Assembly: GCA_017885655.1 (NCBI GenBank)
Contig: JAFNFQ010000029.1
Coordinates: 2,061 to 26,060 of the forward strand
Length of the DNA stretch: 24,000 bases
DNA from: Methanobacteriota archaeon
GTDB lineage: Archaea > Thermoplasmatota > Thermoplasmata > RBG-16-68-12 > JAFNFQ01
Reading direction: 5' to 3'
A program made the translations under genes and the position numbers. Positions 3,534 to 19,578 of this stretch are shown here, piece by piece. Below the pieces are notes generated by a model. The model did not search any database. It was not told the origin of the DNA and saw nothing but the letters and a program-made list of their open reading frames with translations. Every line of letters starts with the position of its first letter. Within the stretch, counting starts at the first letter, position 1.

Positions 3534-4127
3534 TCAGACGGTCCGCCCTCGCGTAGGCGAGCGGGAGGGGATCAGTGGAGACTCAAGCGGCGACGAGGTC
3601 CTTCCCTGCTCCTCATCCGTCACCATCTCCCTCGCCAAGTAACTGATGGCCTCCTTCACGTTCTCGCCGGTCTTGGCGCTGGTCTTGAGAAAGCGAAGGG
3701 CATGCGAGTTGCAGAATCTCTGGACGTCTTCGTCGAGCGACCGGTCTGCCATTTCGAAGTCTACTTTATTGGCCATGACGACGGTCGGGATCTTGCCCAC
3801 GGACGACTGCACGCTGCGTATCCAATCATCCAGCGAGTCGAGCGTCTTAGGCCTGGTCAGGTCGAACACCGCGACGATCCCCCTGACGTGGTTGAAGTAG
3901 GCTGCCTTGAACAGCTCCATGAAGTCCTTGCGGCCCATGATGTCCCAGATCATCAGGGTGATCCTGCACCCCATCTCCGGGAGATCGACTTCCCTCTTGG
4001 AAACCATGGTGCCAACGGTTCTGATGTAGGCCTCGTCAAATGTGTTGCACGCGAACCGGCGGATGAGACACGACTTCCCGACTCCCTCGTCCCCGACCAG
4101 GCACACCTTTCGCTTCATCTCGAGCAT
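3534..4127 (-). CDS. Rab/Ras-superfamily small GTPase (197 aa)
   Basis: G1 is GDEGVGKS. The switch I region is YIRTVG. G3 is WDIMGRK (DxxG retained). G4 is NKVD and G5 is SAKTG. The protein is collinear with eukaryotic Rab1/Ypt1-type sequences, e.g. KVCLVGDEGVGKSCLIRRF against KLLLIGDSGVGKSCLLLRF. Start taken at ATG 4127 (MLEMKRKV) or ATG 4118. The 65-aa Arg-rich extension of the listed ORF overlaps the upstream gene and is rejected. Confidence 0.85.
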   Translation of the reverse strand: MLEMKRKVCLVGDEGVGKSCLIRRFACNTFDEAYIRTVGTMVSKREVDLPEMGCRITLMIWDIMGRKDFMELFKAAYFNHVRGIVAVFDLTRPKTLDSLDDWIRSVQSSVGKIPTVVMANKVDFEMADRSLDEDVQRFCNSHALRFLKTSAKTGENVKEAISYLAREMVTDEEQGRTSSPLESPLIPSRSPTRGRTV

Positions 4128-4149: not shown

Positions 4150-4509
4150 TCACGTCCCGCCGTAGTGCCAGAACGTCTCGACCTCGATGCCCCGTTCGGC
4201 TGTGATGCGCTTGGCTGTCTCCAGGCACGATTGGGGAATCGTGACATGCAGCGTCGCCCACTCCGCGAAGTCCTCCAGCTGTTCCCTCGTCTCCGGCTGC
4301 TCGATCGTCTCGCAGGTCTCAACCTCGTTGTAGACCACCTTCCCGCGGTACTCGACCATGATGTCGGGGACGTGCCTGCCCACCACGGGCGGCGTCGGCC
4401 AGCCGTCCAGGTCCGCGGCCACGACCCTCGACCCCTCTTTCTGGTACGTCTGGATCTGCAGCAGGAGCATCCGGTCGTGGAGCTCCTTGTCCGAATCGCT
4501 GACTCTCAT
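4150..4509 (-). CDS. Hypothetical 119-aa protein, paralog of 4727-5089; possible Hjc/restriction-endonuclease-like fold
   Basis: Start at the internal ATG 4509 (MRVSDSDKE...), because the TATA box and palindrome lie at 4542-4569. It stops 20 nt before the GTPase start on the same strand. The segment VPDIMVEYRGKVVYNEVET resembles the PD...(D/E)xK core of Hjc-type nucleases. The fold assignment is tentative. Confidence 0.55.
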   Translation of the reverse strand: MRVSDSDKELHDRMLLLQIQTYQKEGSRVVAADLDGWPTPPVVGRHVPDIMVEYRGKVVYNEVETCETIEQPETREQLEDFAEWATLHVTIPQSCLETAKRITAERGIEVETFWHYGGT

Positions 4510-4541: not shown

Positions 4542-4569
4542 TCTTTAAGCGCGATGTGGACATGTCCAC
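4542..4569 (-). promoter_or_regulatory. TATA-like box plus perfect 14-bp palindrome GTGGACATGTCCAC (operator candidate)
   Basis: On the gene strand the order is GTGGACATGTCCAC (4556-4569), then ATCGC, then GCTTAAAGA, then about 30 nt, then ATG 4509. The same palindrome-then-TATA layout occurs at 5114-5139 and 8113-8138. Confidence 0.6.
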
Positions 4570-4689
4570 CCCGAGCCAAAGTCAGCACCATAAGGACGGA
4601 TTCTCTCATCTCCCGGGCAAGCGCTGGGAAGGCTGTCCAGAGAGAGGAGGACCGGGCGCGTTAGGAACCTAGGCTCCCTACACGCCCGG

Positions 4690-4730
4690 AAGCATCCCCC
4701 ACAATAGGCCGCGCATCAGTCCTAATTCAC
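4690..4730 (+). repeat. Partial, degenerate third copy (C) of the 92-nt element core
   Basis: AAGCATCCCCCACAATAGGCCGCG...TCCTAATTCACC can be compared with copy B (AAGCATCCCTCCACAACAAGGCCGTCC) and copy A (...CTTTCTAATTGTGG). The 5' 16-mer, the hairpin and the T-tract are absent. Confidence 0.3.
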
Positions 4731-5089
4731 CATCCCGTCACAGCTATGCCGTCCAGTCCCCAACGCTCCAGGTTGGACAGCAACCGCCAGCGCAGGGGCC
4801 AGGGCACGTACACCCTTGTCTCGCCACGTTCGTGCGAGTCCCGAAGCTTCTCTCTCGTTTCCTCAAGGTCGACCTCTTTCTCCAAGAGGATCAGGACCCG
4901 AACCGTTCGAGAACCCTTTGCCGCCCTGATGATCGGGGAGCCTGCTCCCTCCTTTGCCCGGATGGCGGTAGCCCGGAACTCGATGAATCCTTCCTTCTCC
5001 AATAGAGCCTGGCAGCGGCTGACCGCTTTCATTCTGTCTGCATCCGACACGACTCCCTTTCTGGGCATGATCATCTGCATCGCTTGCAT
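4727..5089 (-). CDS. Hypothetical 120-aa protein, paralog of 4150-4509
   Basis: It shares an ordered set of blocks with the 4150-4509 product. These are VSD(A/S)D near the N-terminus, (E/Q)KEG, P(I/D)I, E.E, ETRE(K/Q)L(R/E)D, V(Y/T)(V/I)P and ER(W)G(L/I). The segment LLEKEGFIEFRA...SPIIRAAKGSRTVRVLILLEKE resembles the Hjc N-terminal half (LLEK.GF.V.R...D...G....IE.K) but lacks the Asp. Start ATG 5089 is chosen because it lies ~27 nt from the TATA centre (leaderless) and gives a 120-aa product, against 119 aa for the paralog. ATGs at 5098, 5080, 5074 and 5068 remain possible. Confidence 0.55.
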   Translation of the reverse strand: MQAMQMIMPRKGVVSDADRMKAVSRCQALLEKEGFIEFRATAIRAKEGAGSPIIRAAKGSRTVRVLILLEKEVDLEETREKLRDSHERGETRVYVPWPLRWRLLSNLERWGLDGIAVTGW

Positions 5090-5113
5090 GGTTCTCATGT
5101 TCGATTCGAGACC

Positions 5114-5139
5114 TTTAATACCGCAGTGGAACTGTCCAC
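5114..5139. promoter_or_regulatory. Shared divergent promoter: TTTAATA box plus near-palindrome GTGGAACTGTCCAC
   Basis: TTTAATA lies at 5114-5120 and GTGGAACTGTCCAC at 5126-5139, a 12/14 match to GTGGACATGTCCAC with the outer arms intact. For the + gene (ATG 5144) the palindrome sits between the TATA box and the start codon. For the - gene (ATG 5089) it sits just upstream of the TATA box, as in the other two promoters. Confidence 0.55.
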
Positions 5140-5143
5140 CGCG

Positions 5144-7726
5144 ATGGCTCTGGAGGTGACCGTGGCGGAGCGGTGCCTGCTCTACTTGCTCGACAGGGTG
5201 GGAATTGCCAAGAGCGATCCGGCGTCCGAACAGCTCGTACAAGACCGCATCGCGGAGGTCATTGGTGCCCGTCGCCCGCACGTGTCGAGGGCTCTCAACC
5301 AGCTGGCGAGAGCAGGGCATGTTGACATCGAGAAGGTCCACGTACGAGGGAAGAACAGGAGGGTGCTGGGGTACTTCCTCACTCCGAATGGGGTGCGCAA
5401 GGCAGGAGGGATCAAGAGACTGGTCGAAGAGAAGAAGGTGACCGTAGTCGACCTCGAGGGCAATGAGAAGAGGCTCAGGCTCTTCGAGGCTAGGTCGCTT
5501 CTGGCGCGGAAGCCAAGGCTACTTCAGCTCGCCATGGGCGTGCAGGACGGTCGAATCGACCTGCGCCGCTTCCTGAACCTGGATAAGCGCATGCAAGGCG
5601 GGATGATGTACGACGTTGAAGAGGTGATCTCGGTCCCCCACTTCTCTGGGCGGGAAGATACCCTCGCCCGCCTCGACGGTTTCATGAAGGAGCCGAGTAG
5701 ACGGGGATTCCTGCTCGTGGGCCTGCCGGGCGTCGGCAAGACCGCTCTGGCGTCAAAGTGGGTGGCGGGAGTCAAGGGCCAAATGCATGTTCTGTGGCGT
5801 CGCGTGCAGCCCGGGAGGACGGCCAGCGACACCCTGCGCGACCTGGCAAGAGTCCTCAATGCCGCCGGCAGGCCTGCCCTCATGGAGTCTCTGCAGCAGC
5901 CTGCACAAGATTGGAGGGCGAGGTCGGTCGAGCTCCTCAAGCGGGACCTCCGTGGGATAGTCGTCCTTCTGGTTCTCGACAATGCTCACCTGGCTTCCGA
6001 GGACTTGGGGACACTTGTGTCCGAGATACTCGCAATCGAACCTGCCAACGCAAGTATCAAGGTAATCCTTCTCGGGCGAGAGCGTTGCCAGTTCATCAGG
6101 GCGGAGGACATCGCGAGGGGGAGAGTCCTCCAAGAGGAATTGCCGGATCTCTCCCAGTCTGAAGCTGAACGCATGATGGCGGCGCTGGAAGTGGACAGGG
6201 CGCGTCGAGGTCGCATTTGGGAAGTGTGCGGCGGGCACCCGCTTTCGATCGAACTAGCTGCAGAAGGTGGTGTGTCGGTCGACGCAGTCAAGGAAACATC
6301 CGCATCAAGACTGGCGCAAGAAGTGTTGTCAAGGCTAGATCCCAGGCTGCGCGAGGCCCTGGTCTTCGCCTCTGTCTTCGAGGGTTCAATTCCATTGAGC
6401 CTGCTCGGCGGTCACGGTCGCGAACTGGTCAGGTTGTGCCTCCTTCGGGACGCCGGGAACGGCCGGGCGAGCATGCACGACCTGGTAAGAGCAGCTACGG
6501 TCCGGGGTGCGTCGTCGCAAGAACTCGGAGCCTTCCACAGGCGTGCCGGTGAGTTCCTGGCGAGCAGCAAGGAACCCGGAGAAGCACTGGAAGCCGCTAG
6601 GCATTTCGTGGAATCGGAGGCGTATCCGGAAGCCGAGATCCTTGTCTCCACGAGGGGGCAGGAATTCATCGATGCGGGACTCGCCGAGATGCTGCTCTCG
6701 ACGCTTGAGAAATTGGCATGGACATCGAAGACCACCAAGAGGGAGCCCCCGCTGTCGTTGCTCCGGGCGCAAGCCTTGTTCGCGCTCGGCCGGTGGGCGG
6801 CTGCGTCCAAGGCGTACGAGCTCTGTTCGGGATTCAGGGATGGGCGGATCGCGGCGGAGGCGCTGCTGGGACAGGGCAAGGCGGAGGTTCAGAGACACTC
6901 GCCTCTGGCAGGCAATCACTTGAAGAGGGCGAAACAGAGGTTGGAGCGACTCGGTGCCCTCAGACTGCTTGTGGAGGCAGAGTACTGGGTTGGCGGACAA
7001 CTCGAGGAGACAGGAAGGATCGATGGCGCGCGCGAGGCCTACGAACGGGGCAGAGCGGTTGCCATACAGGTTGGCGATAGACGGTGGGAAGGCCTTTGCA
7101 CCTACGGAATCGGCGGCATCCTCTCGCTCAAGAAGGACTATGCTGGCGCGGCCGAAGAGGACGAGGAGGCGCTGCGACTGCTCGAACGTGACGGTCAGCG
7201 ATTGGAAATCGCCAAGGTGTGCAGTGGATTGGGCGGGGAGTTGATGGAGCTCGGGCGGTATGAGGAATCCGAGAAGTATCTCATGCGCGCAATCGCAGAA
7301 TCACGGGCGACCGGGGCAGTTGGTGTGCTCGCATCCGCGCTGTTCAACTTGGCGGGTCTCCGGAACGAACTGGGCCGAGGTGACGAGGCGATTCCCCTGT
7401 TCACGGAGGCTCTTTCCGAGTTTGACGCGCAGGATAAGTCTTATGAGGCCGCCCTGTGCGCTGCGTGGCTCGCTTCCTATTCATGGATGGCGGGACACGA
7501 GGAGATCGGAAATGAATACGCACGGCGGGCTCGACGGTTGCTTTCCAGGACATTGGAGCCTGCACTCCGGGTCAGGGCGTTGCGCACCTTCGCTCGCGCC
7601 GCGCTGAAGGCGGGCAATAAGGTCACCGCTCGAAAGCATCTTCGTGAAGCCCTCGCCGCCGCCAGAAAGGCCCATCTGGGAAGGGGCGGGTCCGATCTGA
7701 CGGCGGAACTGGACAAGTTGGGCTAG
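5144..7726 (+). CDS. STAND-class NTPase with N-terminal winged-helix DNA-binding domain and C-terminal TPR array (860 aa)
   Basis: The N-terminal wHTH is LLYLLDRVG...DRIAEVIGARRPHVSRALNQLARAGHVDIEKVHVRGKNRRVLGYFLTPNG (MarR/ArsR-like). Walker A is GLPGVGKT. Walker B is VVLLVLDNAH. The NB-ARC-type GxP motif is CGGHPLSIELAA. The C-terminal ~400 aa are Ala/Leu/Glu/Arg-rich helical repeats of TPR type. Start ATG 5144 is preferred over the listed TTG 5084, because the TATA box at 5114-5120 lies inside that extension. Confidence 0.85.
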   Translation: MALEVTVAERCLLYLLDRVGIAKSDPASEQLVQDRIAEVIGARRPHVSRALNQLARAGHVDIEKVHVRGKNRRVLGYFLTPNGVRKAGGIKRLVEEKKVTVVDLEGNEKRLRLFEARSLLARKPRLLQLAMGVQDGRIDLRRFLNLDKRMQGGMMYDVEEVISVPHFSGREDTLARLDGFMKEPSRRGFLLVGLPGVGKTALASKWVAGVKGQMHVLWRRVQPGRTASDTLRDLARVLNAAGRPALMESLQQPAQDWRARSVELLKRDLRGIVVLLVLDNAHLASEDLGTLVSEILAIEPANASIKVILLGRERCQFIRAEDIARGRVLQEELPDLSQSEAERMMAALEVDRARRGRIWEVCGGHPLSIELAAEGGVSVDAVKETSASRLAQEVLSRLDPRLREALVFASVFEGSIPLSLLGGHGRELVRLCLLRDAGNGRASMHDLVRAATVRGASSQELGAFHRRAGEFLASSKEPGEALEAARHFVESEAYPEAEILVSTRGQEFIDAGLAEMLLSTLEKLAWTSKTTKREPPLSLLRAQALFALGRWAAASKAYELCSGFRDGRIAAEALLGQGKAEVQRHSPLAGNHLKRAKQRLERLGALRLLVEAEYWVGGQLEETGRIDGAREAYERGRAVAIQVGDRRWEGLCTYGIGGILSLKKDYAGAAEEDEEALRLLERDGQRLEIAKVCSGLGGELMELGRYEESEKYLMRAIAESRATGAVGVLASALFNLAGLRNELGRGDEAIPLFTEALSEFDAQDKSYEAALCAAWLASYSWMAGHEEIGNEYARRARRLLSRTLEPALRVRALRTFARAALKAGNKVTARKHLREALAAARKAHLGRGGSDLTAELDKLG

Positions 7727-8079
7727 CCTGTCGTGCAGATCGCCGGGTCTGACAACTCAGATGCGATTCCGTCATTGTAGACCGCTTTCACGGCGAAATT
7801 GTATAATGTCATGCTCACCAGACCGGAAACGGTGTAATACGTTACCGTCACCAGATTCTGATTCGCTTTGACATAGTCTGGGTCACCGGGAGCTTTCTTA
7901 TAGATGTTGTATCCCGTGAGGTTGGCATCCAAGACTGCCTCCCAGGAGACTTGGGCCGAGTTGGAAGAGCAGGCCGCATTTACTGACTTCGGTCTGATGT
8001 GACCTGTCTCCGATTCACCCATGACCATTCCGGCCATCATCACGCACGCAAGCACCACCACGAATGTTTTCGGAATCAT
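7723..8079 (-). CDS. Secreted single-FN3-domain protein (118 aa)
   Basis: The signal peptide is MIPKTFVVVLACVMMAGMVMG. An FN3-like pattern follows: AQVSWEAV, LTGYNIYKK, TYYTVSGL, LYNFAVKAVY. GGTGA lies 5 nt upstream of the ATG. Its stop overlaps the STAND gene's stop within CTAG (7723-7726). Confidence 0.7.
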   Translation of the reverse strand: MIPKTFVVVLACVMMAGMVMGESETGHIRPKSVNAACSSNSAQVSWEAVLDANLTGYNIYKKAPGDPDYVKANQNLVTVTYYTVSGLVSMTLYNFAVKAVYNDGIASELSDPAICTTG

Positions 8080-8112
8080 GGCTCACCTGCGTCGATAGGC
8101 TTGGTGCGGTGT

Positions 8113-8138
8113 GATTAAAGCGCCGTGGACATGTCCAT
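8113..8138 (-). promoter_or_regulatory. TATA-like box plus palindrome GTGGACATGTCCAt (operator candidate) of the FN3 gene
   Basis: On the gene strand the order is aTGGACATGTCCAC (complement of 8125-8138), then GGCG, then CTTTAATC (8113-8120), then ~33 nt including GGTGA, then ATG 8079. 13 of 14 positions are identical to the 4556-4569 palindrome. Confidence 0.55.
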
Positions 8139-8336
8139 ATGTCCGAACTGACTGGTTTCCCCCCATGCGTGTCGGGTCCGCCGCGCGTCAGAATCACCGC
8201 GCTCGGTGACACTCCTACCACTCTTCGTGCAACTTTGCGCACATTGAGGCTCCTCAAGAGAACTCGTTAATCATTGTCAGGCGTCCGCCGAATCCTGTCC
8301 ATGTGTGCAGTTCTCGCAAGATAGCAGCCGCCGCCT

Positions 8337-9148: not shown

Positions 9149-9394
9149 ATGCCCCAAGTCGTGCTGCGTTTTGTCTTCATAAGTGAAGCGGAAAAGCCCG
9201 TGGTCACCCTCAAGGTCCCCGACGACATGCTCTTCCAGGAAGCCTTCGTCCTGGCCGCGAAGAGGCAGAACAAGGATGCGACGGTGCTCAGCGCGACCTT
9301 CCCCGGCGGCTCGCCGATCCCAGGCGGCACGGTGAAGGAGATTGCGGAGAGGAGCACCAACATCCACGTGATAGATCCCTCGATCGTCGGGTGA
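9149..9394 (+). CDS. UFM1-like ubiquitin-fold modifier (81 aa) ending in ...VG-stop
   Basis: MPQVVLRFVFISEAEKPVVTLKVPDDMLFQEAFVLAAKRQ...TNIHVIDPSIVG can be compared with human UFM1 as recalled: [40 protein letters not shown]...SELRIIPRDRVG(SC). Length is the same to within 2 residues. The VP..F....AA block and the terminal I.P/D...VG are shared. The gene lies directly upstream of the E2 and E1 genes. Confidence 0.75.
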   Translation: MPQVVLRFVFISEAEKPVVTLKVPDDMLFQEAFVLAAKRQNKDATVLSATFPGGSPIPGGTVKEIAERSTNIHVIDPSIVG

Positions 9395-9397
9395 GGC

Positions 9398-9868
9398 ATG
9401 GCCAAGGAAGACGACCTCTTCTACTTTCTCCAGTGCGCGACAGTCGCCTCGCCGCGAGACGATTCTTGGCTCTTGCGGGCGAAGGAGGAGAGGTACGCCC
9501 TCAGGAGGTTCGAGGAGTACCTGAGGTTTCTGGAAGGCGGGAAGTGGTTCAGCCTCAGCCCGACCGGGGACAAGGCGACTAGCTGGACCGGCACGGTATT
9601 CGACGGCCCGCACTCCTGGGACATAGAGCTCGTCCTGAAGGACGCCTATCCCCAGACGCCTCCCGCCTGCCGCATCCCCGAGCTGATGAACTACACCGAC
9701 CGCAAGGTGGACGACGGTGTGCTCGGGCTGAGGCTCTGCGACATGCACATGGAGCAGAACTACTGGTGGGACGACTACTGCAGCATCGCGCTCTACCTGA
9801 AGAGGGAAGTCTCTTACTGGGTGCAGAGCGTGGTCAAGGACATGAGGGGGAAGGGATGGCTTGACTGA
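9398..9868 (+). CDS. UFC1-like E2 (Ubl-conjugating enzyme fold), 156 aa
   Basis: SPRDDSWLLRAKEERYALRRF, WDIELVLKDAYPQTPPACRIPEL and LRLCDMHMEQNYW correspond to human UFC1 [45 protein letters not shown] and KICLTDHFKPLW. There is no HPN motif, as in UFC1. The candidate catalytic residue is Cys114 (nt 9737-9739). The ATG lies 3 nt after the Ubl stop, with GGTGAGG overlapping that stop. Confidence 0.7.
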   Translation: MAKEDDLFYFLQCATVASPRDDSWLLRAKEERYALRRFEEYLRFLEGGKWFSLSPTGDKATSWTGTVFDGPHSWDIELVLKDAYPQTPPACRIPELMNYTDRKVDDGVLGLRLCDMHMEQNYWWDDYCSIALYLKREVSYWVQSVVKDMRGKGWLD

Positions 9869-10616
9869 GCGATACGCGCGTCTCAAGATATTCCCGTTCG
9901 CGGACTTCTCGAAGCTGAAGGAGAAGAAGGTGACCGTCGTCGGCGTCGGCGGCCTCGGCGCGACCTGCGCGGAGATCATGACGCGCTGCGGCGTCGGGCG
10001 CCTGACAATCTTCGACTTCGACAAGCTCGAGGAAGCGAACCTGAACAGGCTGATCTACAGGACTCACCAGGTAGGCATGTTCAAGGTGGACGCGCTCAGG
10101 GAGTACCTCCTCGCGGCGAACTCCGACGTTGAGCTTCTCACCTATCCTAACGACGTCACCGACGGCAAGGGATACGATGCCCTCCTGAAAGAGGCGAGGG
10201 AGTCAGACCTCGTCCTCGGATGCGTCGACTCGTTCCACGTCCGCATATTCCTCAATTCCCTGTGCGTGAGGCTGAAGGTCCCCCTCATCGACGGCGGAGC
10301 CTCCCTTGACGGAATCAACGGTTCGGTGCATTCGATCATCCCCGGCAAGACGCCCTGTTACCGCTGCAACAAGCCCGCCTTGAAGGATGACAGCACAACG
10401 GACCTGAAGAAGGCCGGAGACGGCGCCTGCCACTTCACTTCCCTCCCCACCACCATGGGCATCATCGCGAGCCTGCAATGTCAGGAAGCGCTGAAGTACC
10501 TCCTCGGCTTCGGCAATGTCGCGCCTTACATCCTCTACTATGGCCTGGAGGGGAAGATGCAGAGGTACAACTGGAAACGGGATCCCAAGTGCCCGGTCTG
10601 CGGTGGTGTGAAGTGA
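9861..10616 (+). CDS. UBA5-like E1 (ThiF/MoeB-fold adenylating enzyme), 251 aa
   Basis: Four segments match human UBA5. [43 protein letters not shown] matches [54 protein letters not shown] matches [42 protein letters not shown] matches [38 protein letters not shown] matches NPQCDDRNC. The candidate catalytic residue is Cys190 (nt 10428-10430). The two CxxC pairs form a Zn site. TTG 9861 is the only start upstream of the conserved N-terminus, and it overlaps the E2 gene by 8 nt. Confidence 0.85.
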   Translation: [251 protein letters not shown]

Positions 10617-11572
10617 CGGTCAGCGTGCGCATGCAGCGGAGCGCGTTGCGCAAGATCAACATGCACGTGAACGAGGTCGCGCGGTCGCGAGGCGTCGAGA
10701 CGATCGGCTGGCTCCTCGGCTTCTTCGGGAGGAGCGAGGTCTGGGTCTGCGACTCGGTCCCCTGCACCCGGTACAAGTCGCAGAGCAGGTACGGCGCTCA
10801 TGCGGATGCGAGAGAGGAGGTCGAGCTGGCGATGCAGTACCCCCGGAACGTGGGCATCGTCGGCATCTTCCACAGCCATCCCTTCAGGGGCGAGACGGAG
10901 CACGCGGTGTTCCACAGCGCGACTGATGACAGCACGCTGAAGTCCAGAGCCTCCCGCCACGAGAACTACCTGAGCGTTGTGACGGACGGGACGGACACGG
11001 AGTTCTTCGTGCTCAGGGACGGCGCGCAGCCGGTGAAGCCGGAGATCGTCGAATCGATATCCTACAGGGAGGAGATGAAGTCCTACCGCTGCCCGCTCGC
11101 TTTCAGGCTGAGGCGGGAGACGAGCCTGCCCAGAGTCGACTTCGTGCCCGGCTACCTGGAGCAGGAGATGCTCGCGCTCGTCGAGAGGGACCTGCGGGGC
11201 GATGGCCTCAGGGTCAAGAAGGACTCGAACACGATCGAGGTGCCCGCGCTCCAGGGCGGGGCGGAATCGAACTCCCTGGTCATCACGAAGACCGGCTCGA
11301 CCGCCATGATAGAGCTGGAGATGATCCTGGAACCAATGGTTTTCGTCCGTGGCGGGAACGCGGAGGAGCTGCGCACCGCCGTGAAGAACGAGATACTGGA
11401 CGATGTGGTGTTCCTCCTATGGAACAGCCTCGGCGGCGGGAGTACCTCGCTCGATGGCGTCAAGAGCTTCGAGGCGAACCTCGGCAGCTTCCGCGTGCAC
11501 GAGACGAGCCCACTGCCAAGGAAGATATTCAAGCCGCCCAGGGGATCCGCGGTACTAGTCCGCGAAGGATAG
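10613..11572 (+). CDS. JAMM/MPN+ metalloprotease with ~190-aa C-terminal domain of unknown function (319 aa)
   Basis: The MPN+ signature is present: Glu in VETIGWLLG, then HSHP (nt 10871-10879) ... SATD. Start is GTG 10613, overlapping the E1 stop as GTGA, or ATG 10631. The upstream part of the listed 364-aa ORF overlaps the E1 gene and is rejected. I recognise nothing in the C-terminal half. Confidence 0.8.
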   Translation: MTVSVRMQRSALRKINMHVNEVARSRGVETIGWLLGFFGRSEVWVCDSVPCTRYKSQSRYGAHADAREEVELAMQYPRNVGIVGIFHSHPFRGETEHAVFHSATDDSTLKSRASRHENYLSVVTDGTDTEFFVLRDGAQPVKPEIVESISYREEMKSYRCPLAFRLRRETSLPRVDFVPGYLEQEMLALVERDLRGDGLRVKKDSNTIEVPALQGGAESNSLVITKTGSTAMIELEMILEPMVFVRGGNAEELRTAVKNEILDDVVFLLWNSLGGGSTSLDGVKSFEANLGSFRVHETSPLPRKIFKPPRGSAVLVREG

Positions 11573-11977
11573 CTTCGCCCCGCACTTCGCGCAGAACCTG
11601 TCCTCCTCCTCCACCTCGTTGTTGCACGCCGTGCACTTGAGCACCGCGGGGTTGCCGCACTTCCCGCAGAAGTTGTCGCCCACCTGCATCGGCGTCCCGC
11701 ACTTCCTGCAGATCGCCGCCGGAGGCATGGCGGGCGCGCCCCTCGACCTGCGGTAGCAGTCCCTGCATGTGTACTCGATCACTCCCTTGACCTCGACCTC
11801 CATGTACTTGTCCCTCTCGAGACCGCAGACGGTGCAGAACGGATTGATCTTCTTTGTCGAGAAGTCGACGATGCGCAACTCGGGCTTTGGCGGGACTACG
11901 GGGACTTCTGGGGCCTGTTCTTCGGCCTGCTCCTGAGGTTCCTCCATCTCGCCTTCTTGCTCTTCATCGGGGGGCAT
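11555..11977 (-). CDS. Triple zinc-ribbon protein with acidic N-terminus (140 aa)
   Basis: There are three CxxC...CxxC units: CTVCG...CRDC, CRKCG...CGKCG and CTAC...CAKCG, the last two in double-zinc-ribbon style. The N-terminal 30 aa are Glu/Pro-rich. A TATA-like ATTTTATG (complement of 12005-12012) lies ~30 nt upstream of ATG 11977. The 3' end overlaps the JAMM gene by 18 nt in convergent orientation. Confidence 0.7.
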   Translation of the reverse strand: MPPDEEQEGEMEEPQEQAEEQAPEVPVVPPKPELRIVDFSTKKINPFCTVCGLERDKYMEVEVKGVIEYTCRDCYRRSRGAPAMPPAAICRKCGTPMQVGDNFCGKCGNPAVLKCTACNNEVEEEDRFCAKCGAKLSFAD

Positions 11978-12715: not shown

Positions 12716-15184
12716 TCAACCGTGGATCACGACGGAAATGGTTGTGGTCGAGTTCCCGCCATCGTCGTCGCGGACCGTGAGGCTCACCGCATAGGTCCCG
12801 GGTCCGGGGAAAGCGTGGCTGACCTCCGCCATGGCGGTGAACGGGAAGGTACCGCCTGGGCTCTCTGGCGGGTCCGGCCCGACGCCGTCGTTGAACACGG
12901 TCGAGTTCTGGGGCGTGCTGTTATCCCCAAAGTCCCACTCGAACGTGATGTCGTCGCTTCCTGGGTCCACTGCCGCCGCCTTGAAGCGAACCGCCAGCCT
13001 CGCCACATACGGCGTGAGGTCCACCTCCCACACGTAGGTCCCGGGGTGGTTGACGTTGAACGTGTGGTGTATCCTGACTGGCTCTTCTCCCGGAGACCCG
13101 ACCATGATCCACACGGGGTTCGCGCCATTCGGCTGCCCGTTGATCGGGTCGTCCTCCGGCGTGTACACGATCCTCGCGGAGTAGTTGGCCGAGAGGAACA
13201 GATTCGTCACGTTCGTTGACATCGCCTGATCATCGGGAGAGCCCGGCATCCTGACGATGCGCAGATGGCCGAGCACCGTGTCGTTGATGAAGAAGATGCC
13301 CTCGACGTCGTGCCACTTCTCTCCCGCAACGCGCAGCGTGAACATCCCTGGACGATTGACCTGGACGATCCGCGCGGTCGGCGCGACATTCCTGACGATG
13401 ACCGCTGTCTCATACACCACAAAGGCGCCGTTCTCATCTGTCACAGTGAGGCGGACCGTGTAGTTGCCGTCATCCCCGTACAGGAAGTCGGCGGTGCTGG
13501 TGGCGCTCATCGGCGATCCCGTTGCTGGGAATGTCTCATCCAGGGTGGGCCCGAGTTCGAACTCCCAATGGAATGAGAGGCTGTCGTTGCCCGGATCTGT
13601 TGCGGTGGCGGTCATGCTGCCGGGCGATCCCTCATCAACATAGACCGGTCCGAAGGGGATAATCGTCGGAGGAACATTCTGAATGTGGATCGAGAATGCG
13701 ACCCCGAGGCCACCGCCATCGTCATCCTGAACCGTCAACTCCCCGGCATAGTCCCCGTCTTGCGGGTAGAATGCCGTGAATGTGGATGTGGCGGCGAACG
13801 GGAATGCCCCGAGCGGGCTCTGCGGCGGGTCAGGGCCGGCCCCATCGTTGTAGAACACCCTCGACTCCACGTCGCCGTTTCCGAAGTCCACGGTGAAATG
13901 GAGGTCATCGCTCCCCGGGTCCTGTGCGGTTGCTGTCATGTCGACGTGCGACCCCTCGTCTGCAGTGGCTGGGAATGAAAGTGCGATGATTGTCGGCGGG
14001 AGGTTCTGCACGACCGCGAGCTTCCCTCCGAGCATCCCGACACCGCCATCGTCGTCGGCCGCGATGATCTCGAGCGGGAAGCTGCCGTCATCTCCGTAAG
14101 TCCGCGTGGCGGTCACCGCCTGTCCGCTCGGGTTGAACCACGTGCCGATGAATTCCGGCGGGAGGCCGTCTCCCCAATCCACCGTGACATTCACCGGATC
14201 TGCTCCTGGGTCGGTGACGCTGAACTGCAGCGTGATCATACCGCCCTCTGAAGAATCCGTGACTGAGCCGAAGGTTATTGACGGGGGGACATTCTTCACA
14301 CCAACGTCGGCCAACGTGGAATTCTGCAGTTTGCCATCGGAGACCGTGAGCTTCGCTCTTCCCTTGAAGTCGTCAGGATATGTGTGGCTGACCGTGGCGT
14401 TCATCGTCGTGATGTCCGTGGTGCCGTCGTTCTCGAAGTCCCATGAGTAGGTGAGCGCATCGCCATCGGGGTCATAGGAACCGCTCGCGTTGAACAGGAT
14501 CGGAGACCCCTCGGTGCCGATGTACGGCCCGCCGCCGTTCGCCACAGGAGGCTTGTTGCATGCGCTCCCAATCGTGACCTGCCCAGTCATCGAGAGCGGG
14601 ATATGGGTCCCGTCACCGTCGACCCAGCGCTGGTAGCGCGCCGGGTCCGGGCCATAGTGTGTCAGGTCCACCTTCAGGGTCCACTCGCTGCTCGTCGGCA
14701 GCGGTCCAAGAGCGCCGCCGTCCGTGTTGGTGAAGTAATGGAACTGGCCCTGGGGATTGCGCGCCAGGTTGAACTCCCCGGGGTCGTCGGAGACCGCCAC
14801 TGAAGCTCCTGCCGGGATTCCCTGTAGCTCAACATCCGTCAGCGCATCAGGCGTTCCGCTCCCGTCGACGTTGAAGTGGAATACGAAGTACAGCTTGCTG
14901 CTCCCCGTGTCAAGATAGAGATAGAGCACGCTCACGTAGGCCTCAACGAACGGCGTGTGTGCGCTATCGCTGTAGTAGTTGTAGAACGAGCTGACTGTCT
15001 GCGCTCGCTCGACGGGCTCTACTGGATGGTCCGACCCGCCCTGGGTGACCTCGAACAAGCAGGGCAGCGTCACCGTCTGAGGCGACGGCGGCTGCGGCAT
15101 GTTGTAGCCAGAAATGGAATTCACGAAGAGGCACCCGACCAAAAGTGCGGCAATAATCCTCACGGTCCCCGCCTCCAGACCCAT
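12716..15184 (-). CDS. Secreted multi-PKD-domain surface protein (822 aa)
   Basis: PKD signatures recur: FNASGSYDPDGDALTYSWDFENDGT, WDFGDNSTP, FTVDFGNGD, VTVDWGDG, and repeated NVPPTI linkers. Start is ATG 15184 (MGLEAGTVRIIAALLVGCLFVNSISG, a signal peptide). An AT-rich box lies ~30 nt upstream (complement of ~15207-15224). The longer listed N-terminus lies upstream of that box. Confidence 0.8.
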   Translation of the reverse strand: MGLEAGTVRIIAALLVGCLFVNSISGYNMPQPPSPQTVTLPCLFEVTQGGSDHPVEPVERAQTVSSFYNYYSDSAHTPFVEAYVSVLYLYLDTGSSKLYFVFHFNVDGSGTPDALTDVELQGIPAGASVAVSDDPGEFNLARNPQGQFHYFTNTDGGALGPLPTSSEWTLKVDLTHYGPDPARYQRWVDGDGTHIPLSMTGQVTIGSACNKPPVANGGGPYIGTEGSPILFNASGSYDPDGDALTYSWDFENDGTTDITTMNATVSHTYPDDFKGRAKLTVSDGKLQNSTLADVGVKNVPPSITFGSVTDSSEGGMITLQFSVTDPGADPVNVTVDWGDGLPPEFIGTWFNPSGQAVTATRTYGDDGSFPLEIIAADDDGGVGMLGGKLAVVQNLPPTIIALSFPATADEGSHVDMTATAQDPGSDDLHFTVDFGNGDVESRVFYNDGAGPDPPQSPLGAFPFAATSTFTAFYPQDGDYAGELTVQDDDGGGLGVAFSIHIQNVPPTIIPFGPVYVDEGSPGSMTATATDPGNDSLSFHWEFELGPTLDETFPATGSPMSATSTADFLYGDDGNYTVRLTVTDENGAFVVYETAVIVRNVAPTARIVQVNRPGMFTLRVAGEKWHDVEGIFFINDTVLGHLRIVRMPGSPDDQAMSTNVTNLFLSANYSARIVYTPEDDPINGQPNGANPVWIMVGSPGEEPVRIHHTFNVNHPGTYVWEVDLTPYVARLAVRFKAAAVDPGSDDITFEWDFGDNSTPQNSTVFNDGVGPDPPESPGGTFPFTAMAEVSHAFPGPGTYAVSLTVRDDDGGNSTTTISVVIHG

Positions 15185-15426
15185 GAGTCCAGATTCGCTG
15201 GCAAGCTCATAAGTCTTTTGTAGAGCGTGGGGCGCGGTGGTCTGCATGCTGGGTAGTGGTGCAGAATGAAGGATCGCGAGATTGCGGGGAGGAATTCGCA
15301 CCGGCGAGAGAGATTCCCTGCTTCCTCATGATGAAGTTGAGGAAAGGCACCGCAAGGTCGAATAATCCCCGGTCCAAGTAGAAAGCGTGGCTCCCGCGTC
15401 AGTCCTCTTGTTCACCTGATCGCAGC

Positions 15427-15723: not shown

Positions 15724-16266
15724 GTGCGGTGGAAGCCGCTCCAGTGTGGGGGGAGCAGCTCCGCGTGTGGATGGAGGTCGGACGAGCGTGGGGCGAGCTG
15801 CTCCACATGTGGGCGGAGTCGCTCCGAGTGTGGAGGAAGTTCGTCCGCGTGTGGATGGATTCTCACCAAGTGTGGACGGAGTCTCGGAACACTCGGACCG
15901 AGCTTCGAAACATCGTCGCGGATGCGGAAAACTGCACCGGAAGCCCCGGAGAGTGTGGAGCGAGCCGCTCCGTGTGTGGACGGAGTTCCTCCGCACGTGG
16001 ATGAAGCCGGTCCGCGTGTGGACGGGTCCTCTCCACGTGTGGACCGAGGCCGGGCGAGTGTGGGCGGAGTCTCTCCGCGTGTGGACGGAGGCGGAGCGAG
16101 TGTGGACGGAGCCCGGGAACATTCTCGCGTATATACGCGCAAGTATCGATATCCCCGGAAAACGCGGACGGAGTCCGTGCGCGTGTGGACGGAGTGTCTC
16201 CACATGTGGACGGAGGCGGAGCGCGTGTGGACGGAGTCCGTGCGAGTGTGGTTGAATGGGCCCCTG
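15724..16266 (+). repeat. Nested tandem array: ~20 units of 21 bp (consensus GTGTGGACGGAG-N4/5-CTCCGC) inside a ~230-bp higher-order repeat
   Basis: GTGTGG-type cores start at 15744, 15765, 15786, 15807, 15828, 15849 and 15870. A second block starts at 15953, 15974, 15995, 16016, 16037, 16058, 16079 and 16100. A third block starts at (16162), 16183, 16204, 16225 and 16246. Every step within a block is exactly 21 bp. The phase jumps by 83 bp (4x21-1) at both interruptions. The two interrupting segments are homologous to each other (GGAACA(C/T)T..., (G/C)CGGAAAAC...). Confidence 0.85.
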
Positions 16267-16509
16267 TATGGGGTGGGATGCGCACCGATGGAGGATTCCT
16301 CGATCCCAACGGCCTCCGATTGGCCCTCGTCGCTTTCGCATAAGGCGATTATCCCATTCGCATGATGCAAGATTCTTCCGACCAGCGTCCGGATGAAGAT
16401 CATATCCACCACCCACTCCGCTCAATCGACCATCCGGGTCCGTGCATAGCCCTGCGTGTGAAACTGCTAAATAGAGATTCGACAGGTAGACATCCGCTTG
16501 CATCCGCGA

Positions 16510-19500
16510 ATGTCTCGCGCTGGTCAGCCATATGATGCGACTAGGCATGCGCACCCAGGCGGCATCCTGGCCGTGTCGGCATCGGTGGCCTTCATCCTCG
16601 TGTCGAGCCTGACAGCAGTCCCGCTGCTGCAGACCGCCCCCCCTTCGGGCGATGGCGGGAGCAGGGCAATGTCCCAGGAGACGGTCGTGCGGAGCCTTTC
16701 CGGAGACTACGTCATCGAGAACGCCGGTCAAGTCGCGGACGGTGTAAGATTTTATTCGATGGGGAATCCCTCGGCTGGATTCCGCGATGACGGCGTGGTG
16801 TTCGTACTGTCTGACGAGATGAAGGCGCAAGATGGGACGGAGAGTGATCAGGTACTCCAGCACGCCCGCCCAGCCCTTTTCGAAGCGGTGCAACGAACCG
16901 TCTCGGTCGCCTACCTCCTCCGCTTCGAGGGGGAGAACGAGGTCAGGCCGGTCGGCAGAGACCGCCTGCCTTTCGATAGCAACTTCTTCCTTGGAGACGA
17001 TTCGGCCAGGTGGAAGGTTAATGTCCCCAGTTACGAGGAGGTCGTTTACGAGAATCTCTATGATGGCATCGACCTCGTCTACCGCCCGATCGAGCACGGA
17101 GTGAAATACGAGTTCCTCCTGAGTCCCGGGGCGGACCCGCGCTCGATCAGCCTGAGGTATGAGGGAATCGAGTCTCTTGAAGTCAGAGCGGACGGAATAG
17201 CGGTTGCGACAACATCAGGTGAAATCCTGGACTCCGCACCTTACTCGTTCCAAGAAGGCGGGGCTGAAGTCCATTGCGTTTTCTCGTTCCGCAGTCCCAG
17301 CTCCTATGGCTTCGACTGCGCCGGATGGGACGGGACTTCGCTCCTGACCATCGACCCTCTGATCTACTCCACTTTCCTTGGCGGGAGCGGCTGGGACCAA
17401 GGTTACTCCATCAAGGTAGACAGCAATGGAAACGCCTATGTGACCGGACAGACTCGGTCAGCCAATTTCCCCACGACGCCCGGTGCATACGACACCACTC
17501 GCGGCGGAACGGACGACGCCTACGTGACGAAGCTGAGCTCAGACGGGACATCGCTGGTCTATTCCACGTATGTTGGCGGAGGCAGTACTGATGTTGGTCT
17601 CTCCATAGCCCTGGACGCGAATGGCAACGCGTGCATAGCGGGTGAAACCCTGTCCTCTGACTTCCCGACCACTCCTGGCGCCTTCAGCAGGACTTATCAT
17701 GGTAAGTCCGATGGATTCGTCACGAAGCTGAATTCGGATGGAAACGCTCTCCTGTTCTCTACTTACATCGGCGGGGCGGAAAACGACACCTGGCCAACTG
17801 TGGCGGTCGATACCGCGGATAATGTCTATGTTGCAGGCATCACCAAATCAGTGGATTTCCCCGTCACACCAGGAGCGTTCGACGTCTCGTACAACTCTGG
17901 TGGTTCGGACGCGTTCGCTATGAAGCTGAACTCGACAGGCATGGCCCTGATCTATTCCACCTTCCTTGGCGGGAACGATGCGGACTTTGCCTACTCGATT
18001 GCGGTGGACACCGCCATGAACGCGTATGTGACAGGGGGCGCCTGGTCTGTCGACTTCCCGACCACGCCAAGCGCCTTCGATAGATTGCAGAGCGGCTCTT
18101 GCGATGTCTTCGTCACGAAGATTAGCGTCACAGGCGGTTCCCTCGACTATTCCACCTTCCTAGGGGGAGGCGGTTTCGACGTCGGGCTCAGCATCGCGGT
18201 CGATTCCTCGGGGCTGGCCTTCGTGACCGGGTCGATAGACTCGCTGAACTTCCCCGTGACCCCCGGCGCGTACGACTCCTCTTTCAACGGAGGTCTCTAC
18301 GATGCCTTCATCGCGAAGCTGAATTCGGGCGGGAGCTCGCTGCTATACTCGACCTATTTTGGCGGTGGGAACGGTGAGTTCGGGAACGCCATCGCGGTCG
18401 ATTCGGCGGGGAACGCCTACATAACGGGCGGTACCGACTCGAATGACCTCCCAGTCACACCTGGTGCTTTTGATACATCTTACAATGACCTCATGGACGC
18501 ATTCGTCACGGAGATGAACGGGACTGGATCCCTCGCCAACTCCACCTACCTTGGCGGGAGCGGCACAGAAGGATACCTGAACTTCCTGACCGTCGACCCT
18601 ATCGGTGAAATCTACGTGACCGGCATCACGAACTCCACGGATTTCCCGATCACGCCAGGCGCCTTCGACACGACAGTCGATCCCAACAGGGATGGTTATG
18701 TCACGAAACTGGGCCCACTGTTCCCGGATCTCGCGGTCGGTCAGCGGGACATAGCATTCGACCCGCCAGGGCCCGTGATGGTCGGCACAACGGTCACGAT
18801 AAACGCGACCATCGATAACCTTGGGTCATCTGATGCCATCGGTGTCATTGTCAGGTTCCACGATGGTCCGCCGTCCGGCTCGAACCAGATAGGATCCGAC
18901 CAGGTCATAGCGTTTCTCCCGGCTCCGGGCGGCACTGGGCTCGCCTCGGTTGTGTGGATTGCGGACCCGCCCGGGATGCACAATATTTGTGTAGTCGCAG
19001 ACCCTGATAATAGAATAGCCGAAAGCAATGAAGCTAATAATCTGGCCTGCCGCAGATTCCCGGTTCTGACAACTTACACTCTCCCGCTCACCCCTGGCCA
19101 CCGGTTCGTGTCGTTCCCGCTCAAGCCTGTCCCTGATGACGTCGCGTCAGTGCTGAGTTCGCTTTCCGGTTGCTACGACTACATCCGCTGGTATGATGCG
19201 CTCGATCCGAGCGACCATTGGAAGTCCTACGAGCCCGCAAGGGGATACAACGACATAGAGCGACTGGATAACACCATGGGCTTCTGGATGAACGTCACAA
19301 TCGCTTGCGATTTCATTGTGACCGGCTACCCCGAGAGACTCACCATGCTCTCCCTTTACGCCGGCTGGAACATGGTCGGCTATCCGTCTTTCAACACGTC
19401 TTACACCGTGGCGGACCTCAAGGCCGCAATCGGCCTTGCTGGCGTGATCGTCGAGACGTTCGATGCGAGCGCTGCCCCGTACTATCTGCAGAGAGCGCCG

Positions 19501-19578
19501 GACAGATACACGTTTGCGGCGGGAGAGGGCTACTGGATATTCGTGCCATCTGATGTCGACTGGGCAGTCTATGGTTGA
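16510..19578 (+). CDS. Surface protein with N-terminal conserved region, SBBP-type beta-propeller repeats, CARDB-like domain and C-terminal domain (1022 aa)
   Basis: The N-terminal anchor is GILAVSASVAFILVSSLTAV. About 8 repeats follow of YSTFLGG...D.G..IAVD..GNAYVTG.T.S.DFPTTPGAFD....G..DAFVTKLN..G..L. Next comes DLAV...GTTVTINATIDNLGSSDA (CARDB-like). The C-terminus has GWNMVGYP and GEGYWIFV. Start is ATG 16510 (the listed TTG 16498 is possible). CTAAATAG box at 16467-16474. Confidence 0.85.
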   Translation: MSRAGQPYDATRHAHPGGILAVSASVAFILVSSLTAVPLLQTAPPSGDGGSRAMSQETVVRSLSGDYVIENAGQVADGVRFYSMGNPSAGFRDDGVVFVLSDEMKAQDGTESDQVLQHARPALFEAVQRTVSVAYLLRFEGENEVRPVGRDRLPFDSNFFLGDDSARWKVNVPSYEEVVYENLYDGIDLVYRPIEHGVKYEFLLSPGADPRSISLRYEGIESLEVRADGIAVATTSGEILDSAPYSFQEGGAEVHCVFSFRSPSSYGFDCAGWDGTSLLTIDPLIYSTFLGGSGWDQGYSIKVDSNGNAYVTGQTRSANFPTTPGAYDTTRGGTDDAYVTKLSSDGTSLVYSTYVGGGSTDVGLSIALDANGNACIAGETLSSDFPTTPGAFSRTYHGKSDGFVTKLNSDGNALLFSTYIGGAENDTWPTVAVDTADNVYVAGITKSVDFPVTPGAFDVSYNSGGSDAFAMKLNSTGMALIYSTFLGGNDADFAYSIAVDTAMNAYVTGGAWSVDFPTTPSAFDRLQSGSCDVFVTKISVTGGSLDYSTFLGGGGFDVGLSIAVDSSGLAFVTGSIDSLNFPVTPGAYDSSFNGGLYDAFIAKLNSGGSSLLYSTYFGGGNGEFGNAIAVDSAGNAYITGGTDSNDLPVTPGAFDTSYNDLMDAFVTEMNGTGSLANSTYLGGSGTEGYLNFLTVDPIGEIYVTGITNSTDFPITPGAFDTTVDPNRDGYVTKLGPLFPDLAVGQRDIAFDPPGPVMVGTTVTINATIDNLGSSDAIGVIVRFHDGPPSGSNQIGSDQVIAFLPAPGGTGLASVVWIADPPGMHNICVVADPDNRIAESNEANNLACRRFPVLTTYTLPLTPGHRFVSFPLKPVPDDVASVLSSLSGCYDYIRWYDALDPSDHWKSYEPARGYNDIERLDNTMGFWMNVTIACDFIVTGYPERLTMLSLYAGWNMVGYPSFNTSYTVADLKAAIGLAGVIVETFDASAAPYYLQRAPDRYTFAAGEGYWIFVPSDVDWAVYG

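Follow-up and report, generated by a model that had tools for sequence, protein, structure and literature searches.

In STAND transcription regulators, binding of a ligand leads to the exchange of ADP for ATP, to multimerization of the protein and to promoter binding (PMC6468293). The examples cited in a 2026 survey, MalT, GutR and AfsR, are all bacterial (PMC13581612). An archaeal counterpart, PH0952 of Pyrococcus horikoshii (PDB 6MFV), is predicted to be a transcription factor, carries an N-terminal winged helix-turn-helix (wHTH) domain and a TPR sensor, occurs in several archaeal phyla, and was crystallized in an ADP-bound, autoinhibited state; a contact between the GxP motif and the P-loop has been described for it (PMC6468293). 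In the searched literature mentioning PH0952, no operator, regulon, autoregulation or DNA target is reported for it. The present study concerns a 24 000 nt stretch of contig JAFNFQ010000029.1 from a thermoplasmatal archaeon, referred to below in its full length as the window, which encodes a PH0952-like regulator and contains three copies of a 14 bp palindrome, each next to a TATA-like box. By comparison of orthologous loci we show that this palindrome is a selected promoter element kept at fixed positions in promoters of three types, namely those of the regulator gene itself, of a gene for a fibronectin type III protein (fn3) and of an operon (p119/GTPase) that includes a gene for a small GTPase. 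We propose that the palindrome, in its general form GTG[G/C]A-N4-T[C/G]CAC, is the candidate operator of the cassette's own STAND regulator, a model to which, with its inferred mechanism included, we give a probability of about 70%.

The regulator has the same domain order as PH0952 (wHTH effector, NOD, arm and TPR sensor), but the two are distantly related in sequence (84 bits), and the wHTH of PH0952 has been called ArsR-like whereas the one described here matches HTH_Crp_2. With MalT (Escherichia coli), GutR (Bacillus subtilis) and the AfsR/SARP-LAL proteins it shares the combination of a STAND NTPase core, a repeat sensor (of the TPR type in MalT and AfsR) and a DNA-binding domain. MalT, however, carries its HTH, of the LuxR type, at the C-terminus and binds asymmetric MalT boxes that come in arrays, whereas no Pfam match to a GerE/LuxR HTH was found in the regulator, whose sole HTH is N-terminal. 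AfsR, for its part, has an N-terminal OmpR-type wHTH and a BTAD domain, and neither of these (Trans_reg_C and BTAD in Pfam) was found in the regulator; the NCBIfam model for AfsR matched it with 28 bits against a cut-off of 1430, in the TPR region only. The locus differs from all three bacterial systems in having a single palindromic site per promoter, and in that the promoters are of the archaeal TBP/TFB type and not sigma-70 promoters. The features of the window on which the argument turns are as follows.

4556–4569: operator copy O1, GTGGACATGTCCAC, a perfect palindrome, 5 nt upstream (in the sense of transcription) of the p119/GTPase TATA box
4542–4550, minus strand: p119/GTPase TATA-like box, CTTTAAGC (CTTAAAG on the minus strand), its centre 37 nt from ATG 4509, separated from O1 by 5 nt
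5126–5139: operator copy O2, GTGGAACTGTCCAC, lying from the shared TATA box toward the regulator start and ending 4 nt short of ATG 5144
5113–5120: single shared TATA box, CTTTAATA, serving a promoter that is bidirectional and symmetric, separated from O2 by 5 nt
8125–8138: operator copy O3, GTGGACATGTCCAT, placed 4 nt before the fn3 TATA box in the sense of transcription, with the fn3 ATG 45 nt away
8113–8120, minus strand: fn3 TATA-like box, GATTAAAG (CTTTAATC on the minus strand), its centre 37 nt from ATG 8079, separated from O3 by 4 nt
5144–7726, plus strand: regulator gene, 860 aa, with an N-terminal Crp-type wHTH (about residues 1–90), a STAND NOD, an arm and a TPR sensor
4727–5089, minus strand: p123, a basic 120 aa protein (pI 9.8) with an invariant C-terminal Arg/Trp-rich GETRVYVPWPLRWRLLSNLERWG
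4150–4509, minus strand: p119, an acidic 119 aa protein (pI 4.75) with a conserved VPDI...NEVET motif, encoded by the first gene of its operon
3534–4127, minus strand: small GTPase of the Ras superfamily (197 aa), its gene beginning 22 nt downstream from p119
7723–8079, minus strand: fn3 protein, a secreted single-domain fibronectin type III protein of 118 aa with a signal peptide (Pfam fn3, 5e-11)

The initial annotation of the window had reported the three 14-mers, and their coordinates and sequences were right throughout; the TATA-like box that it placed beside each copy is there too, at gaps of 5, 5 and 4 nt, with the middle box assigned here to 5113–5120. The gene calls around the palindromes likewise proved correct, as judged by Pfam for 5144–7726, 7723–8079 and 3534–4127 and from the open reading frames (ORFs) for 4727–5089 and the 119 aa protein. 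When up to two mismatches to GTGGACATGTCCAC were allowed, the window gave three matches where a mean of 0.107 was expected, and not one of 1000 dinucleotide-preserving shuffles reached three, which bears out the statement that such a recurrence cannot be chance. The half-site pattern GTGGANNNNTCCAC, with at most one mismatch, matched five times against 0.96 expected (0 of 100 shuffles reached five); the two surplus matches, at 16018 and 22724, each have one mismatch and a non-palindromic centre, with no TATA box nearby, and the pattern scans found no further good copy in the window, as had been said from inspection by eye. A dispersed repeat or a miniature inverted-repeat transposable element was considered and rejected because the likeness among the three copies is confined to the 32 nt from the TATA box through the end of the palindrome. 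An Rfam scan of the region matched no family except that of a tRNA.

About 25 orthologous loci (designated by L numbers) were recovered from metagenome-assembled genomes (MAGs) of Thermoplasmata, with flanks of up to 10 kb in the relatives. One of them, the near-identical Logan contig L001, has the same gene order as the window. The core of the cassette, consisting of p123 divergent from the regulator gene and fn3 convergent with it, is present in every locus that reaches far enough, save L007, where tblastn did not detect fn3 though a palindrome is present near the end of the locus. The palindrome recurs at three fixed promoter positions in about 20 orthologous cassettes, whose regulators are 45–76% identical. 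At the regulator's own promoter, 19 ortholog loci include the upstream region and all 19 have the palindrome, about 6 nt past an ATTTAAG/CTTTAAT box (TTTAA being invariant in 14 of 14 lineages). Of the 18 loci whose start is defined, 17 have a gap of 3–5 nt between the end of the palindrome and the ATG or GTG; the exception, L056, has a gap of 7 nt, and its start is only approximate. When 14 non-redundant lineages were aligned, the invariant columns of this intergenic region were one G at the position of the transcription factor B recognition element (BRE), TTTAA, and the G, T, G, A, T, T and C of the palindrome, and nothing else. At the fn3 promoter a site is found 45–48 nt before the ATG wherever an ortholog locus extends that far. 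At p119 the succession of site, 5 nt, TATA box, 33 nt and start is found in the window and in most of the available p119 promoters: in L051 and L077, p119 is preceded by the same site and TATA box as in the window, and L077, which at 76% identity is the closest ortholog whose locus is complete, carries all three of the window's sites. A p119 site is also present in L004, L054, L057 and L075. In these loci the operon has been relocated to the opposite side of the cassette and diverges from fn3, so that a single palindrome lies between two TATA boxes facing outward, that of fn3 and that of p119.

Across the ortholog loci (205 kb plus 41 kb) there were 44 perfect matches to the degenerate pattern, and only two of them fell outside promoters, one at L052 2245 (intergenic and unexplained) and one at L075 10943 (inside the regulator coding sequence); 505 kb of unrelated loci gave two perfect matches, which equals the chance expectation. 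We count the palindrome as a selected element because its positions have been kept while the surrounding intergenic DNA has diverged. The conservation in orthologous loci that the initial annotation had proposed as a check is therefore seen at all three positions in about 20 cassettes, and its refuting case, a common repeat unrelated to promoters, does not apply in the sequences reached, where 42 of the 44 matches are promoter sites. The geometry that it described is kept in the orthologs as well: the three minus-strand genes have the site upstream of BRE/TATA, and the regulator gene has it between TATA box and start.

Two loci, L004 (6970–7398) and L045 (5751–6109), have in addition a perfect palindrome, GTGGATATATCCAC, 7–8 nt upstream of a TATA box whose gene is small, leaderless and codes for a wHTH protein (125 aa, matching HTH_IclR/HTH_20 weakly). 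Neither the window nor the remaining loci have this gene, which appears to extend the regulon in a lineage-specific way, and because of that absence its product was rejected as a general binder of the palindrome. In lineages that lack p119/GTPase beside fn3, other plus-strand genes were observed to follow the shared palindrome after a weak GGCTAAGG-type box, among them one for a 369 aa membrane protein without Pfam matches (L047 11154–12263; L076 4059–5168) and, in L008 at about 11000–11856, an alpha/beta-hydrolase-like ORF; these may be variable members of the regulon. Two further palindromes may be auxiliary sites or chance occurrences: a weaker one, GTGCAACTTTGCGC, at 8227–8240 of the window, intergenic and 102 nt past O3, and GTGCAAGGTTCCAC at L052 2245–2258, which lies 82 nt past the fn3 site of that locus and immediately before an ATG.

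The centre of the TATA box shared by p123 and the regulator is 27.5 nt from ATG 5089 on the minus strand and 27.5 nt from ATG 5144 on the plus strand, the two ATGs being 55 bp apart, and the box is flanked on both sides by purine-rich BRE-like sequence; the public annotation of the 120 aa protein also starts at ATG 5089. Both mRNAs are predicted to be leaderless, and leaderless transcription seems usual in the organism, since for the DNA_alkylation gene at 1911, too, the distance between TATA box and ATG is about 27 nt. Given a leaderless start and the position of the TATA box, O2 would cover roughly −18 to −5 of the regulator's own promoter. From the side of p123 the same copy occupies the position just upstream of BRE/TATA. 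For fn3 and p119 the distance of 37 nt from TATA centre to ATG implies a leader of about 10 nt, with starts predicted near 8090 and 4520, respectively, on the minus strand; a Shine–Dalgarno sequence, GGTGA, stands 3 nt before the fn3 ATG at 8079 and is conserved within the fn3 leader. In both of these promoters 4–6 nt separate the TATA box from the palindrome upstream of it, and the BRE position between them holds a conserved 'CGCGC', rich in G+C. The TATA boxes of the own promoter are strong and invariant, while the orthologous fn3 boxes are degenerate in most lineages (TTTCATC, CCTCATC, CTCTTGG, CATGATG).

Two other ways of reading this layout were tried. All three promoters might read the plus strand, on which the order of TATA box, gap and palindrome is identical and an ATG follows O3 at 8139. 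This was rejected, as no conserved plus-strand gene follows O1 or O3 and the minus-strand ATGs stand at fixed distances; it is also contradicted by L004, L054, L057 and L075, where the TATA boxes on either side of the palindrome serve fn3 and p119 outwards. A regulator start at GTG 5126, inside the palindrome (giving 866 aa on the Logan contig), was rejected because the variation of the gap from 3 to 5 nt breaks the frame in other lineages. We also observed that the four central bases of the palindrome differ by promoter type in most lineages, being ACTG or ACTA (asymmetric) at the own promoter and CATG or TATA (symmetric) at the targets, with the exception of L008-type cassettes, which carry CATG at the own promoter.

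The assignment of the regulator to the STAND NTPases is supported by the presence of Walker A, Walker B and GxP motifs in its predicted sequence and by a profile match to a solved STAND NOD. Among its 27 full-length orthologs (45–100% identical), G193, G196, G198 and K199 of the Walker A motif GLPGVGKT show no variation, and T200 is kept in at least 90%; D279 of the Walker B motif, LLVLDNAH in the window and DDAH in the family consensus, is invariant, as are G363, G364 and P366 of the GxP motif CGGHPLSLELAA (GGHP). The Walker B motif (window 5978–5992) reads LVLDNAH in the proteins of the window and of L004, and the Asn at the second acidic position might slow ATP hydrolysis. Pfam models matched the regulator at residues 28–64 (HTH_Crp_2, 28.0 bits against a cut-off of 27), 167–315 (AAA_16/AAA_22) and 537–760 (TPR_12 and related families). 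The family profile aligned over positions 167–507 with residues 15–343 of the PH0952 chain (PDB 6MFV), i.e. with NOD and arm (E 5.6e-23, 84 bits); homology is clear for this part, and similarity over the TPR sensor is insignificant. A weak match to an NB-ARC protein was also obtained. The predicted order of domains, wHTH, NOD, arm and TPR, is that of the PH0952-like archaeal predicted transcription factors. None of the five cassette proteins had a match in PADLOC, and the reading of the regulator as an antiviral STAND protein (Avs/bNACHT) was rejected on this ground and for its N-terminal domain, which is a wHTH and not a nuclease, protease or TIR domain.

That the wHTH of the regulator is the likely binder of the palindrome is suggested by several features of the cassette. 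The regulator is the only cassette protein with a recognized DNA-binding domain; its N-terminal 100 residues have a pI of 10.3, and S48, R49 and A50 of the putative recognition helix and H66 and R73 of the wing belong to the small set of N-terminal positions at which at least 90% of the orthologs agree. This assignment is strengthened by the autoregulatory position of O2, by the Crp-type wHTH and by the divergence of operators between paralogous cassettes. The MAG JBGPQV01 (isolate OBJ1_062018_150_24) was observed to contain two such p123–regulator–fn3 cassettes, L004 8001–10580 and L008 8001–10577. In L004 the operator is GTGGA..TCCAC, with helix RQAHVSR and wing HVRG, and in L008 it is GTGCACATGTCCAT, with helix RREHVSR and wing RAGG; L048 has the symmetric variant GTGCA-N4-TGCAC, with helix SRAEISR. 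The differing operators, helices and wings of L004 and L008 suggest insulation between the paralogous circuits, and such divergence of operator and protein argues for a binder encoded in the cassette rather than for a global factor.

The wHTH resembles the CRP/FNR proteins in its HTH_Crp_2 match and in weak PDB matches to Crp/Fnr DNA-binding domains. CRP and FNR recognize TGTGA-N6-TCACA and TTGAT-N4-ATCAA, respectively, and if the palindrome is written as GTGG-N6-CCAC its half-site spacing equals that of the CRP core, GTGA-N6-TCAC, a similarity that we regard as a lead only. The regulator differs from these proteins in that the HTH_Crp_2 module stands alone: a sensor barrel of the cyclic nucleotide or FNR type was not found, nor is there a C-helix dimerization module, and the wHTH is N-terminal whereas that of CRP/FNR is C-terminal. 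A TrmB-type wHTH (PF01978) gave no match in the regulator.

We propose that two wHTH domains would bind the two 5 bp half-sites of the palindrome. By analogy with MalT and other STAND proteins, binding of a ligand to the TPR sensor would open the NOD, ATP would replace ADP, and the resulting multimerization would pair the wHTHs on the palindrome, so that binding would probably occur only after ligand-triggered multimerization; that the protein may act as an NTP- and TPR-ligand-dependent switch follows from its homology to PH0952 and MalT. At the own promoter, regulator bound to O2 between the strong TATA box and the leaderless start would block recruitment of RNA polymerase and bring about negative autoregulation. 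At fn3 and p119/GTPase, where the site adjoins, on the upstream side, a BRE position rich in G+C and a weak TATA box, bound regulator would stand where archaeal activators recruit TFB/TBP and would turn the genes on. The p123 gene, which shares the regulator's TATA box and sees O2 from upstream, would possibly be activated.

The direction of regulation proposed here is inferred from the positional rule described for archaea, by which a site upstream of BRE/TATA activates and one downstream represses (PMC4158304); under this rule the own promoter would be repressed and fn3, p119/GTPase and possibly p123 would be activated. Sites in the upstream position go with activation for TrmBL1/Tgr, Ptr2 and TFB-RF1 (PMC4158304), and archaeal activators make up for weak BRE/TATA elements (PMC5937170, PMC5512572). 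The combination of degenerate fn3 boxes with strong own-promoter boxes fits dependence of the targets on an activator. Closest in cis-logic are TrmBL1/Tgr, acting through the TGM motif, and SurR, whose motifs lie downstream of the TATA box where a promoter is repressed and upstream of BRE/TATA where it is activated (PMC4158304), together with the BRE-proximal activators Ptr2, TFB-RF1 and EarA. These regulators are, however, small one- or two-domain proteins (TrmB, ArsR and Lrp families), whereas here the wHTH is part of an 860 aa NTP-driven switch. In the haloarchaeal gas-vesicle promoters PA/PD, one GvpE activator element lies between close divergent promoters, upstream of both BREs (PMC2241852), and the palindrome with two TATA boxes between fn3 and p119 in L004, L054, L057 and L075 resembles this arrangement; GvpE differs in being an unrelated, leucine-zipper-like regulator with a non-palindromic element. 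The shared box of p123 and the regulator, with its ATGs 55 bp apart, recalls the BRE–TATA–BRE promoters of Pyrococcus furiosus, for which one TATA box with two starts about 50 bp apart has been shown experimentally (PMC6640164). There, however, the second transcript is mostly non-coding antisense RNA, whereas here both directions serve conserved protein genes and the operator is placed asymmetrically, on one side of the TATA box.

The predicted circuit contains a Ras-like GTPase, two small proteins of nuclease fold and a secreted FN3 protein. The GTPase, presumably co-transcribed with p119, matches Pfam Ras (7e-34), Roc and Arf as well as TIGR00231, and its gene adjoins p119 in L001, L004, L051, L075 and L077. 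Its G1 (GDEGVGKS), G4 (NKVD) and G5 (SAK) motifs are intact, and its G3 motif is DIMGRK, without Gln at the position of Ras Q61; it is 97% identical between the window and L004, while the regulators of these two loci are only 55% identical. Neither p119 nor p123 matched a Pfam family. For both, weak but concordant Foldseek matches point to a restriction-endonuclease-like, PD-(D/E)xK-type fold: the AlphaFold2 model of p119 (predicted local distance difference test score, pLDDT, 92.5) matched the nuclease domains of SfsA, Cdn1 and Can2, and that of p123 (pLDDT 79.3) matched AF2093, AF1548, XisH and Hjc. The two had been called paralogs from the start, and although BLASTP is insignificant (E 1.7), the alignment of their family profiles by hhalign (85.6%, E 5.6e-6), the identical helix–strand–strand–strand–helix–strand–helix–strand topology of the AlphaFold models and the concordant Foldseek matches back that claim, if as a distant relationship. 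The p123 gene lies divergent to the regulator gene in every ortholog locus, and most members of its family have a pI of 9–12, two being acidic (about 5). The fn3 gene, convergent with the regulator gene, overlaps its 3′ end.

Several points weigh against the model of regulation by the cassette's own STAND protein. The co-variation of operator and wHTH comprises about three independent events and does not separate the regulator from the basic p123; position 4 of the motif (G/C) varies between sites within single cassettes (L005/L047) and may not be a determinant of specificity; and the motif is absent from L009 and L010, distant relatives at 21–25% identity. Transcription starts were deduced from TATA spacing alone, and the size of the regulon is a lower bound, with about 24 kb of the source genome inspected. 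The gap of 4–6 bp between palindrome and TATA box bears on the direction of regulation, as a dimer seated there could cover BRE/TATA and so keep the targets repressed. With the same operator and the same binder, the protein might thus be a pure repressor, a dimer covering the BRE at fn3, p119 and p123 and a change of ligand state freeing four promoters together, which is possible if on the unlikely side. Several archaeal repressors work by occlusion of BRE/TATA, a typical footprint would overlap the BRE across so short a gap, and the target boxes of the window itself (CTTAAAG and that of fn3) are not notably weak. Yet the fn3 box is degenerate in most lineages (CCTCATC, CTCTTGG and CATGATG among them), as is typical of activator-dependent promoters, and upstream sites go with activation for TrmBL1/Tgr, Ptr2 and TFB-RF1 (PMC4158304), which speaks against pure repression.

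The remaining alternatives concern the binder. It is quite unlikely that a dimer of p123 recognizes the palindrome, the STAND protein acting on p123 or in parallel with it, even though p123 is tied to the palindrome no less strictly than the regulator, has a predicted fold of a class that often reads palindromes as dimers, and is basic (its family mostly at 9–11.8) with an invariant Arg/Trp-rich C-terminal motif. No DNA-binding family was matched by p123, and two of its family are acidic; the regulator, by comparison, has a bona fide wHTH with a nearly invariant putative recognition helix, and a site between its TATA box and start is a classical signature of autoregulation. We regard as very unlikely a factor encoded elsewhere, such as a global or stress regulator, for which the STAND gene would merely be one target. 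The extent of the sequence inspected (some 24 kb of the source genome and flanks of at most 10 kb in relatives) leaves room for more sites and regulators, and L004 and L045 do have an extra site before a small wHTH gene. That gene, however, is missing from the window and most loci, in every lineage the motif accompanies the cassette while the flanks lack it, and the two paralogous cassettes of one MAG carry different operators, as would be the case for insulated, cassette-encoded binders. Scarcely credible is a palindrome that is no protein site at all but the product of promoter duplication with the paralogous genes, an RNA hairpin or chance. The promoters of p119 and p123, genes that are distantly paralogous, could share ancestry, and the 14-mer is able to form a 5 bp hairpin; but the element has been kept while its flanks diverged, at 45–76% protein identity, fn3 is unrelated to these paralogs and still has a site, Rfam gave no match, chance is excluded by the shuffles, and the fn3, p119 and p123 sites, lying upstream of the predicted starts, would not be transcribed. 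The comparative data effectively refute this last explanation.

Elsewhere in the window, a eukaryote-like ubiquitin-type gene block was observed at 9149–11977, comprising an 81 aa ORF without a Pfam match (a possible modifier), a UFC1-like E2 (9398–9865), a ThiF-type E1 (9861–10613), a JAB/MPN protease (10478–11569) and, on the opposite strand, a double-zinc-ribbon protein (11558–11977). A closely similar block lies near the cassette of L075, with no recorded JAB match for the protein after E1. The window also has a tRNA-Thr (TGT) at 1244–1318 and genes for large predicted surface proteins at 12719–15301 (minus strand, four PKD domains) and 16498–19575 (plus strand, DUF7948, SBBP beta-propeller and CARDB), with a further predicted surface protein, a Kelch propeller, at 19610–20677 on the minus strand.

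The palindrome, with its proposed operator function, autoregulation and position-dependent logic, is an element of an ordinary kind, in a class of regulators without a described operator in the searched literature. A broader reading would have an ATP- and ligand-gated switch silence its own leaderless promoter and activate the GTPase module and FN3, making the locus a receptor-to-small-GTPase cassette and its palindromes the first readable cis-code of an archaeal STAND factor, with the C-terminal peptide of p123 as a possible TPR ligand or anti-activator and with paralogous cassettes insulated by operator divergence; taken as a whole, we consider this speculative and unlikely. STAND regulators with known targets (MalT, GutR, AfsR) are bacterial, and the locus gives the archaeal PH0952-like class a conserved 14 bp candidate operator. 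The geometry is defined, a single site occupying a repression position and three occupying positions of the activation type, and the regulon is small enough for work in vitro. If the model is true, it would offer a direct view of an NTP-driven oligomerization switch acting on the TBP/TFB/RNA polymerase machinery, and a Ras-superfamily GTPase of a non-Asgard archaeon would be tied to a specific transcriptional input, providing a handle on the role of such GTPases.

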